A stretch of 64,000 bases of DNA from Escherichia coli (lineage in GTDB: Bacteria; Pseudomonadota; Gammaproteobacteria; Enterobacterales; Enterobacteriaceae): assembly GCF_003334335.1 (NCBI RefSeq), contig NZ_QOWQ01000004.1; one strand, given 5' to 3'. Under the pieces are notes generated by a model, which had not been told where the DNA came from, did no database searches, and saw only the letters and a list, made by a program, of their open reading frames with translations. Shown one piece after another: positions 19,514-63,986 of this stretch (position 1 is the first letter of the stretch; the number at the start of each line of letters is the position of its first letter). A program made the position numbers and the translations under genes.

Positions 19514-19557
19514 GAACACAGCAATTTTGCGTTATCTGTTAATCGAGACTGAAATAC

Positions 19558-20982
19558 ATGAAAAAAACCACATTAGCACTGAGTGCACTGGCTCTGAGTT
19601 TAGGTTTGGCGTTATCTCCGCTCTCTGCAACGGCGGCTGAGACTTCTTCAGCAACGACAGCCCAGCAGATGCCAAGCCTTGCACCGATGCTCGAAAAGGT
19701 GATGCCTTCAGTGGTCAGCATTAACGTAGAAGGTAGCACAACCGTTAATACGCCGCGTATGCCGCGTAATTTCCAGCAGTTCTTCGGTGATGATTCTCCG
19801 TTCTGCCAGGAAGGTTCTCCGTTCCAGAGCTCTCCGTTCTGCCAGGGTGGCCAGGGCGGTAATGGTGGCGGCCAGCAACAGAAATTCATGGCGCTGGGTT
19901 CCGGCGTCATCATTGATGCCGATAAAGGCTATGTCGTCACCAACAACCACGTTGTTGATAACGCGACGGTCATTAAAGTTCAACTGAGCGATGGCCGTAA
20001 GTTCGACGCGAAGATGGTTGGCAAAGATCCGCGCTCTGATATCGCGCTGATCCAAATCCAGAACCCGAAAAACCTGACCGCAATTAAGATGGCGGATTCT
20101 GATGCACTGCGCGTGGGTGATTACACCGTAGCGATTGGTAACCCGTTTGGTCTGGGCGAGACGGTAACTTCCGGGATTGTCTCTGCGCTGGGGCGTAGCG
20201 GCCTGAATGCCGAAAACTACGAAAACTTCATCCAGACCGATGCAGCGATCAACCGTGGTAACTCCGGTGGTGCGCTGGTTAACCTGAACGGCGAACTGAT
20301 CGGTATCAACACCGCGATCCTCGCACCGGACGGCGGCAACATCGGTATCGGTTTTGCTATCCCGAGTAACATGGTGAAAAACCTGACCTCGCAGATGGTG
20401 GAATACGGCCAGGTGAAACGCGGTGAGCTGGGTATTATGGGGACTGAGCTGAACTCCGAACTGGCGAAAGCGATGAAAGTTGACGCCCAGCGCGGTGCTT
20501 TCGTAAGCCAGGTTCTGCCTAATTCCTCCGCTGCAAAAGCGGGCATTAAAGCGGGTGATGTGATCACCTCACTGAACGGTAAGCCGATCAGCAGCTTTGC
20601 CGCACTGCGTGCTCAGGTGGGTACTATGCCGGTAGGCAGCAAACTGACCCTGGGCTTACTGCGCGACGGTAAGCAGGTTAACGTGAACCTGGAACTGCAG
20701 CAGAGCAGCCAGAATCAGGTTGATTCCAGCTCCATCTTCAACGGCATTGAAGGCGCTGAGATGAGCAACAAAGGCAAAGATCAGGGCGTGGTAGTGAACA
20801 ACGTGAAAACGGGCACTCCGGCTGCGCAGATCGGCCTGAAGAAAGGTGATGTGATTATTGGCGCGAACCAGCAGGCAGTGAAAAACATCGCTGAACTGCG
20901 TAAAGTTCTCGACAGCAAACCGTCTGTGCTGGCACTCAACATTCAGCGCGGCGACAGCACCATCTACCTGTTAATGCAGTAA
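19558..20982 (+). CDS. degP: Periplasmic serine endoprotease/chaperone DegP (HtrA): trypsin-like domain plus two PDZ domains
   Basis: 474-aa ORF with signal peptide and catalytic GNSGGAL motif. Confidence 0.95.
   Translation: MKKTTLALSALALSLGLALSPLSATAAETSSATTAQQMPSLAPMLEKVMPSVVSINVEGSTTVNTPRMPRNFQQFFGDDSPFCQEGSPFQSSPFCQGGQGGNGGGQQQKFMALGSGVIIDADKGYVVTNNHVVDNATVIKVQLSDGRKFDAKMVGKDPRSDIALIQIQNPKNLTAIKMADSDALRVGDYTVAIGNPFGLGETVTSGIVSALGRSGLNAENYENFIQTDAAINRGNSGGALVNLNGELIGINTAILAPDGGNIGIGFAIPSNMVKNLTSQMVEYGQVKRGELGIMGTELNSELAKAMKVDAQRGAFVSQVLPNSSAAKAGIKAGDVITSLNGKPISSFAALRAQVGTMPVGSKLTLGLLRDGKQVNVNLELQQSSQNQVDSSSIFNGIEGAEMSNKGKDQGVVVNNVKTGTPAAQIGLKKGDVIIGANQQAVKNIAELRKVLDSKPSVLALNIQRGDSTIYLLMQ

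Positions 20983-54728: not shown

Positions 54729-54848
<120 letters not shown>

Positions 54849-62444: not shown

Positions 62445-63986
<1,542 letters not shown>

Follow-up and report, generated by a model that had tools for sequence, protein, structure and literature searches.

The repeat segment DDSPFCQEGSPFQSSPFCQGGQGGNGGGQQQKF, encoded by degP (htrA) in a stretch of Escherichia coli DNA of 64,000 nucleotides (hereafter the window), represents with a probability of about 95% the distal part, or tip, of the LA loop of E. coli DegP, which is the 'Q-linker' of older papers. The segment combines three SPF(C)Q units, two cysteines and a tract rich in glycine and glutamine (G/Q tract), and nothing contradicts its reading as part of the LA loop. 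The features analyzed are listed below; mature numbering corresponds to precursor numbering minus the 26-residue signal peptide.

19558..20982, + strand: degP (htrA) coding sequence, 474 codons plus stop, from the list of open reading frames
19741..19878, + strand: LA loop of the protease domain, mature residues 36-81 = precursor 62-107, boundaries according to PMC4434178
19789..19887, + strand: segment DDSPFCQEGSPFQSSPFCQGGQGGNGGGQQQKF, 33 residues, precursor 78-110, mature 52-84, exact translation
19795..19809, + strand: unit 1, SPFCQ, mature S54-Q58, with the Cys57 codon TGC at 19804-19806
19816..19827, + strand: unit 2, SPFQ, without cysteine, mature S61-Q64
19831..19845, + strand: unit 3, SPFCQ, mature S66-Q70, with the Cys69 codon TGC at 19840-19842
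19846..19881, + strand: G/Q-rich flexible tract GGQGGNGGGQQQ, mature 71-82

The degP gene and its repeat segment

The gene product is a periplasmic serine endoprotease and chaperone with a trypsin-like domain and two PDZ domains; on the protein, Pfam matches were obtained for Trypsin_2 (114-250), Trypsin (108-275) and PDZ (287-367 and 393-463). The assignment to DegP, already made in an earlier note drawn from the sequence, was confirmed by the NCBIfam equivalog NF008189, which covered residues 1-474 with 935.4 bits at a cut-off of 720. The DegQ equivalog reached 653 bits, which is under its own cut-off of 756, with its best stretch starting at residue 103, and the DegS models reached 276-283 bits, under cut-offs of 408-423. 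The PDB chains 1KY9, 3OU0, 3CS0, 3OTP and 6JJO matched the window protein at E values of ~1e-287, and the sole difference to the solved E. coli DegP chain shown in the alignment was the engineered exchange S210A. The columns of the catalytic triad (precursor H131, D161 and S236) were invariant in an alignment of 35 sequences (A2); these residues correspond to His105, Asp135 and Ser210 in mature numbering (PMC4339722).

Among 5,426 complete E. coli genomes, degP was annotated on the same DNA in 5,425, and in all 5,425 matching genomes at least 80% of the query was covered. The neighbour just upstream of degP in complete E. coli genomes is dgt. The one other genome was without a match to the degP segment. 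Also, the segment was found on three records classed as plasmids in this genome collection.

Upstream of the coding sequence, the Rfam family RF02700 ('HtrA 5' UTR thermometer') matched at 19518-19563 (+ strand), reaching into the degP start codon at 19558; the match scored 77 bits against a gathering score of 52 and covered the full model (1-46 of 46). A scan for sigma-70 promoters and terminators around degP yielded nothing over the shuffle expectation. For the promoters this is no surprise, as degP reportedly falls under the sigma-E-dependent stress response (PMC5359297), a promoter type outside the scan. Elsewhere in the window, further Rfam matches over the gathering score were obtained on the + strand for t44 RNA (28434-28520), the sRNA CssrA (29359-29468), naRNA4 (CssrE; 54732-54808) and a complete 16S rRNA gene at the window end (62445-63986).

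The description of the segment in the earlier note, with three SPF(C)Q motifs, two cysteines and a G/Q-rich linker, proved accurate in the exact translation of 19789-19887 and in shuffle tests. The range of 19775-19890 given there encloses the segment with 14 extra nucleotides on the 5' side and 3 on the 3' side. SPF starts at precursor residues 80, 87 and 92, so that the units are 7 and 5 residues apart. The only two cysteines of the whole protein are located in units 1 and 3 at precursor positions 83 and 95 (mature 57 and 69), 12 positions apart, and the tract past the second cysteine reads QGGQGGNGGGQQQ. On the DNA level, an exact 16-nt direct repeat TCTCCGTTCTGCCAGG is present at 19795-19810 and 19831-19846, 36 nt apart, with the first arm corresponding to unit 1 and the second to unit 3; between these arms, at 19816-19827, there is a third copy TCTCCGTTCCAG from which the Cys codon is missing.

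Three copies of one tripeptide composed of three different residues within 15 amino acids occurred in only 129 of 100,000 shuffles of the protein, and an exact DNA repeat of at least 16 nt was obtained in 7 of 3,000 codon shuffles of the gene. The SPF motif is thus real and non-random. No repeat was reported on degP by Tandem Repeats Finder, for which the units are too short and too irregular in their spacing. Among the papers searched in full text, none that was relevant used the spelling 'SPFCQ'.

Position in the LA loop and published contacts

According to PMC4434178 the LA loop comprises mature residues 36-81, whereas it is given as 38-79 elsewhere (PMC4339722). The term 'characteristic Q-linker (residues 55-79)' was used for a stretch that sets DegP apart from DegQ (PMC4336711); in the window it corresponds to nt 19798-19872 and falls inside the segment. 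In the AlphaFold model, a loop of ~42 residues connects strand 1 (52-63) and strand 2 (106-120), and the segment lies in this loop, which on the basis of the model places it structurally within the protease domain. The location within the protease domain that the earlier note had assigned is thereby supported, though the Pfam trypsin matches begin only after most of the segment, at residues 108 and 114, and leave it just upstream. The model renders the PFC triplets at 81-83 and 93-95 alike, each as the same short helical turn. The pLDDT was 71-79 across the SPF/Cys module and fell short of 50 for residues 98-104, which belong to the G/Q tract.

The earlier note had proposed to map the segment onto published structures; in the version of 1KY9 that a modelling study worked with, Asp52-Gly78 is absent (PMC4434178). 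Much of the LA loop has never been visualised in crystal or cryo-EM maps (PMC11642142). Because this stretch is largely invisible in solved structures, the contact map for residues 52-78 rests on published modelling and biophysics.

The LA loops were described as pillars of the DegP hexamer that intrude into the active site (PMC3081313); in the resting state, those from opposite trimers are intertwined. Mature positions 46, 49, 50, 62, 63, 67 and 68, all Pro or Phe, form a hydrophobic cluster between LA and LA'; Phe56 contacts loop L2 of the opposing subunit, on which Phe68 and Cys69 pack as well, and loop L1 is contacted by Asn45, Gln47 and Gln70 (PMC4339722). On the repeat, these contacts correspond to Phe in unit 1, to Pro-Phe in units 2 and 3, and additionally to Cys-Gln in unit 3. 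Since the published contacts fall on the repeat residues, the repeated letters are the contact residues themselves. A mutation of Phe63 was reported in a preprint to raise the activity (bioRxiv 10.1101/2025.11.03.686187).

The two cysteines form the sole disulfide of DegP, Cys57-Cys69, which is made by DsbA (PMC4339722; bioRxiv 10.1101/2025.11.03.686187). Cys-less DegP showed a higher activity and formed 12-mers more readily, and reduction or removal of the disulfide exposed the loop, increased the activity and eased the conversion to 12-mers (PMC4339722). In the 2025 preprint the disulfide was proposed to serve as a redox sensor in vivo (bioRxiv 10.1101/2025.11.03.686187). The suggestion of a regulatory loop in the earlier note agrees with this published work, according to which the LA loop with its Cys57-Cys69 disulfide keeps the resting hexamer inactive (PMC4339722). 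Furthermore, the LA loop contains two sites where DegP cleaves itself (PMC5359297), after C69 or Q82 (PMC5911493). On the window, these sites are located after nt 19842 (Cys69) and after nt 19881 (Gln82), and they bracket the G/Q tract.

The published model of DegP regulation is as follows. In the resting hexamer, each LA loop would extend across to the opposite trimer. There, Phe56, Pro62, Phe63, Pro67 and Phe68 of the SPF units would join Phe46, Phe49 and Phe50 in a hydrophobic cluster shared with the LA loop of the partner, and they would pack on L2; Gln70 and its neighbours would touch loop L1. These contacts would distort and cover the active site. The DsbA-made disulfide would staple units 1 and 3 into a compact ring of 13 residues and thereby stabilise the inhibitory state. 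Heat, substrate bound to PDZ1 or reduction of the disulfide would free the loop, upon which the hexamer would be converted, by way of trimers, into active 12- and 24-mers. The exposed loop would also be the region of self-cutting after Cys69 and Gln82. We infer that the G/Q tract acts as a flexible tether in this arrangement. How the LA loop latch is released was still called unexplained in a 2024 review (PMC11642142).

Conservation, variation and origin of the segment

The window sequence and degP from 80 other species-level Enterobacteriaceae genomes were compared (81 sequences), and 120 close protein clusters were inspected in addition. The pattern SPFC-xx-SP(F/L)x-x-SP(F/L)C was present in 81/81 species, with three units and a spacing of 12 positions between the cysteines throughout. 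Small differences in the flanks occurred in 10 of the 80 fetched loci, where the three units were likewise found by direct translation. Variation in repeat number among orthologs, which the earlier note had proposed to look for, was therefore not found in these 81 species; it is only the length of the G/Q tract that varies. Conservation of the hydrophobic and Cys positions of the LA loop across Enterobacteriaceae had already been published (PMC4339722, Fig. 12).

At synonymous sites the units vary independently of each other, using all four TCN Ser codons, up to four Pro codons and both Cys codons. Unit 1 was identical to unit 3 in DNA in 8 of the 81 species, compared to 4.5 expected with random codons, which in this test for concerted evolution of units 1 and 3 was not significant (P ~0.07, without phylogenetic correction). 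The identity of the units is already broken in other Escherichia species (loci L004 and L006). Homogenisation or gene conversion was considered as the source of the 16-nt identity and rejected, as the excess over the expected number was not significant; the identity in E. coli is a coincidence of codon choice. Since the amino acids are fixed while synonymous sites differ, the repeat is old and held by selection on the protein rather than homogenised, and the SPF/Cys core is under strong purifying selection.

The G/Q tract, here taken from Cys69-Gln70 to Lys83, is the sole length-variable part, with 9-19 residues among the 81 species, and consists mainly of Gly and Gln, but also of Ala, Asp, Pro and Asn. 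Within E. coli, the length of the window allele was found in 29 of 30 genomes sampled across the ranking of matches, the sole length variant being the outlier at the bottom of this ranking. In this genome, strain 401651, 9 bp are duplicated in tandem (GCCAGGGTG), so that the tract gains one QGG; the change is unique among the 5,426 complete genomes. The duplication is located at 442-450 of locus L001, equivalent to an insertion in 19840-19857 of the window, and is a slippage duplication. A more frequent allele has CAG replaced by CTG at codon 99 (19852-19854), which leads to the exchange Gln99Leu in the precursor or Gln73Leu in the mature protein. An exact 41-mer match to it was present in 380 of the 5,426 genomes (~7%), including Nissle 1917 and the type strain ATCC 11775, and the window allele was matched exactly in 2,368 of the 5,426. 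At the position of codon 99, Glu is present in P0001, which represents the E. coli 90% cluster.

It is conceivable, though rather doubtful, that the G/Q tract serves as an evolutionary tuning knob beyond a passive tether, with its length, rare slippage variants and common replacements setting how far the disulfide-stapled SPF module reaches into the opposite trimer. If this were true, the temperature or redox threshold at which DegP becomes active, and likewise how fast it cleaves itself, would be set by the tract in each lineage. A large tuning effect of the natural variation on the activation threshold is unlikely.

Other readings of the segment were weighed against its identification as the tip of the LA loop. 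The exact 16-nt direct repeat with a third near-copy in between, its rarity in codon shuffles (7/3,000) and the 9-bp tandem duplication close by in one genome would fit a recent repeat of variable copy number, in which, as at a contingency locus, slipped-strand events add or remove SPF(C)Q units and create functional DegP variants among strains. Such a repeat is extremely unlikely and has already been largely refuted, since the unit count is three in all 81 species, all 5,425 matching genomes cover at least 80% of the query, 29 of the 30 sampled rows have the same length, and the only length variant sits in the G/Q tract, outside the SPF units. Moreover, units 1 and 3 agree in DNA about as often as independent codon choice predicts (8/81), L004 and L006 already differ, and Tandem Repeats Finder detected no array.

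Very unlikely, too, is functionless low-complexity filler, i.e. a neutral disordered spacer tolerated by a surface loop, with the motif repeated simply as a consequence of composition. This would account for the hypervariability of the G/Q tract in length and sequence (9-19 aa), for its very low prediction confidence and lack of visualisation in structures, and for common natural replacements such as Gln99Leu. However, the SPF/Cys core is invariant in its amino acids while its synonymous sites are scrambled, it is kept even in reduced endosymbiont genomes, and published mutagenesis and redox experiments revealed functional effects (PMC4339722; bioRxiv 10.1101/2025.11.03.686187), so that the filler reading is applicable at most to the exact sequence of the G/Q tract. 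An antisense open reading frame of 124 aa with WQNGE repeats exists at 19539-19913 on the - strand and overlaps the degP start, but it is hardly conceivable as a real or additional coding feature. The WQNGE repeats simply arise from reading the SPF(C)Q repeats on the complementary strand. Across species, the changes fall on synonymous third positions of the degP frame and leave the DegP peptide invariant, and E. coli genomes carry no annotation other than degP in this region. With mirrored repeats and a substitution pattern that fits the degP frame, it was rejected as a gene.

Distant homologues were collected from a search of representatives of 50%-identity clusters. The LA loops of Buchnera read SPFCQGDSPFRHSPFC and SPLCQKESPLKESPLC. 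In Buchnera and in beetle endosymbionts the Cys pair is kept, 12 residues apart in most cases, and the units are degenerate and follow xP(F/L). Degenerate Cys-bracketed modules, most with the same Cys spacing, were found in reed-beetle endosymbionts and in Candidatus Dasytiphilus. In the sampled DegQ-like and other HtrA loops, which are ~20 residues shorter, neither the Cys pair nor the SPF triplet was found.

One homologue labelled as a Neisseriaceae metagenome-assembled genome (P0136, MBP6117407.1; 396 aa, 53% identity) has an LA loop with APMCQSGAPFFNTPMC, i.e. a module with the same 12-residue Cys spacing and three xP(M/F) units. The disulfide of the LA loop is said to be limited to Enterobacteriaceae (PMC4339722), and the label of P0136 falls outside this family; horizontal transfer, a binning error or an independent origin may be behind it.

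The HtrA homologue P0141 (49% identity, alignment A2) has the LA loop QQFFGGQGGNSAPVQRQF. Its stretch QQFFG-GQGGNSAPVQRQF equals the E. coli DegP loop minus DDSPFCQEGSPFQSSPFCQG. From the comparison of the sequences, it seems that a DegQ-like loop with a short G/Q tract acquired the Cys/SPF module long ago as a discrete insertion of ~20 residues, and possibly the inserted module was built by repeating an SPF unit. With three units in 81/81 species and differing synonymous sites, any duplication would predate the family. The earlier note had called the segment internally duplicated. The shared motif and, in E. coli, the shared codons agree with this, while copy-number variation is lacking, which makes the case circumstantial. 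An ancient duplication is plausible, and it is inseparable by these sequences from convergent selection for Pro-Phe contacts.

Significance and comparison with known systems

DegP, a virulence factor, also serves as a model protease-chaperone, and the LA loop works as the latch holding it inactive. The identity as latch explains the odd composition of the segment, which comprises a conserved Pro/Phe contact module, a redox-sensitive disulfide staple and a floppy, self-cleaved tether. The LA loop as a feature, its disulfide, regulatory role and autocleavage sites and its conservation in Enterobacteriaceae were already known from publications, and the finding settles no open question. Added here are the explicit reading as three units, codon-level evidence for the age of the repeat and a quantified variability of the G/Q tract. 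The catalogue of tether variation could guide experiments on the release of the latch.

Compared with the LA loop or 'Q-linker' described for E. coli DegP, the segment is the same feature, as mature residues 52-84, the cysteines and the autocleavage sites all match and the window allele is without any difference. The LA loops of DegQ and other HtrA proteins sit at the same topological place, after the first and before the second strand of the protease domain, and share with DegP an aromatic-rich base (xPFFxxFF), and some of them have a short G/Q tract, e.g. P0141 and P0266. Unlike DegP, they are ~20 residues shorter and have neither the Cys pair nor the SPF triplet, and the profiles and PDB chains of DegQ and DegS align to DegP mostly from about residue 103-110 on.

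The DegP tract, to which the name Q-linker was applied (PMC4336711), resembles the Q-linkers of Wootton and Drummond in being flexible, rich in Gln, Gly, Ser and Pro, and tolerant of changes in length. Classical Q-linkers, however, join two domains, whereas the DegP tract is part of a loop inside a single domain, located in the AlphaFold model between strands 1 and 2 of the protease domain. In further contrast to classical Q-linkers, it is attached to a conserved contact module stapled by a disulfide.
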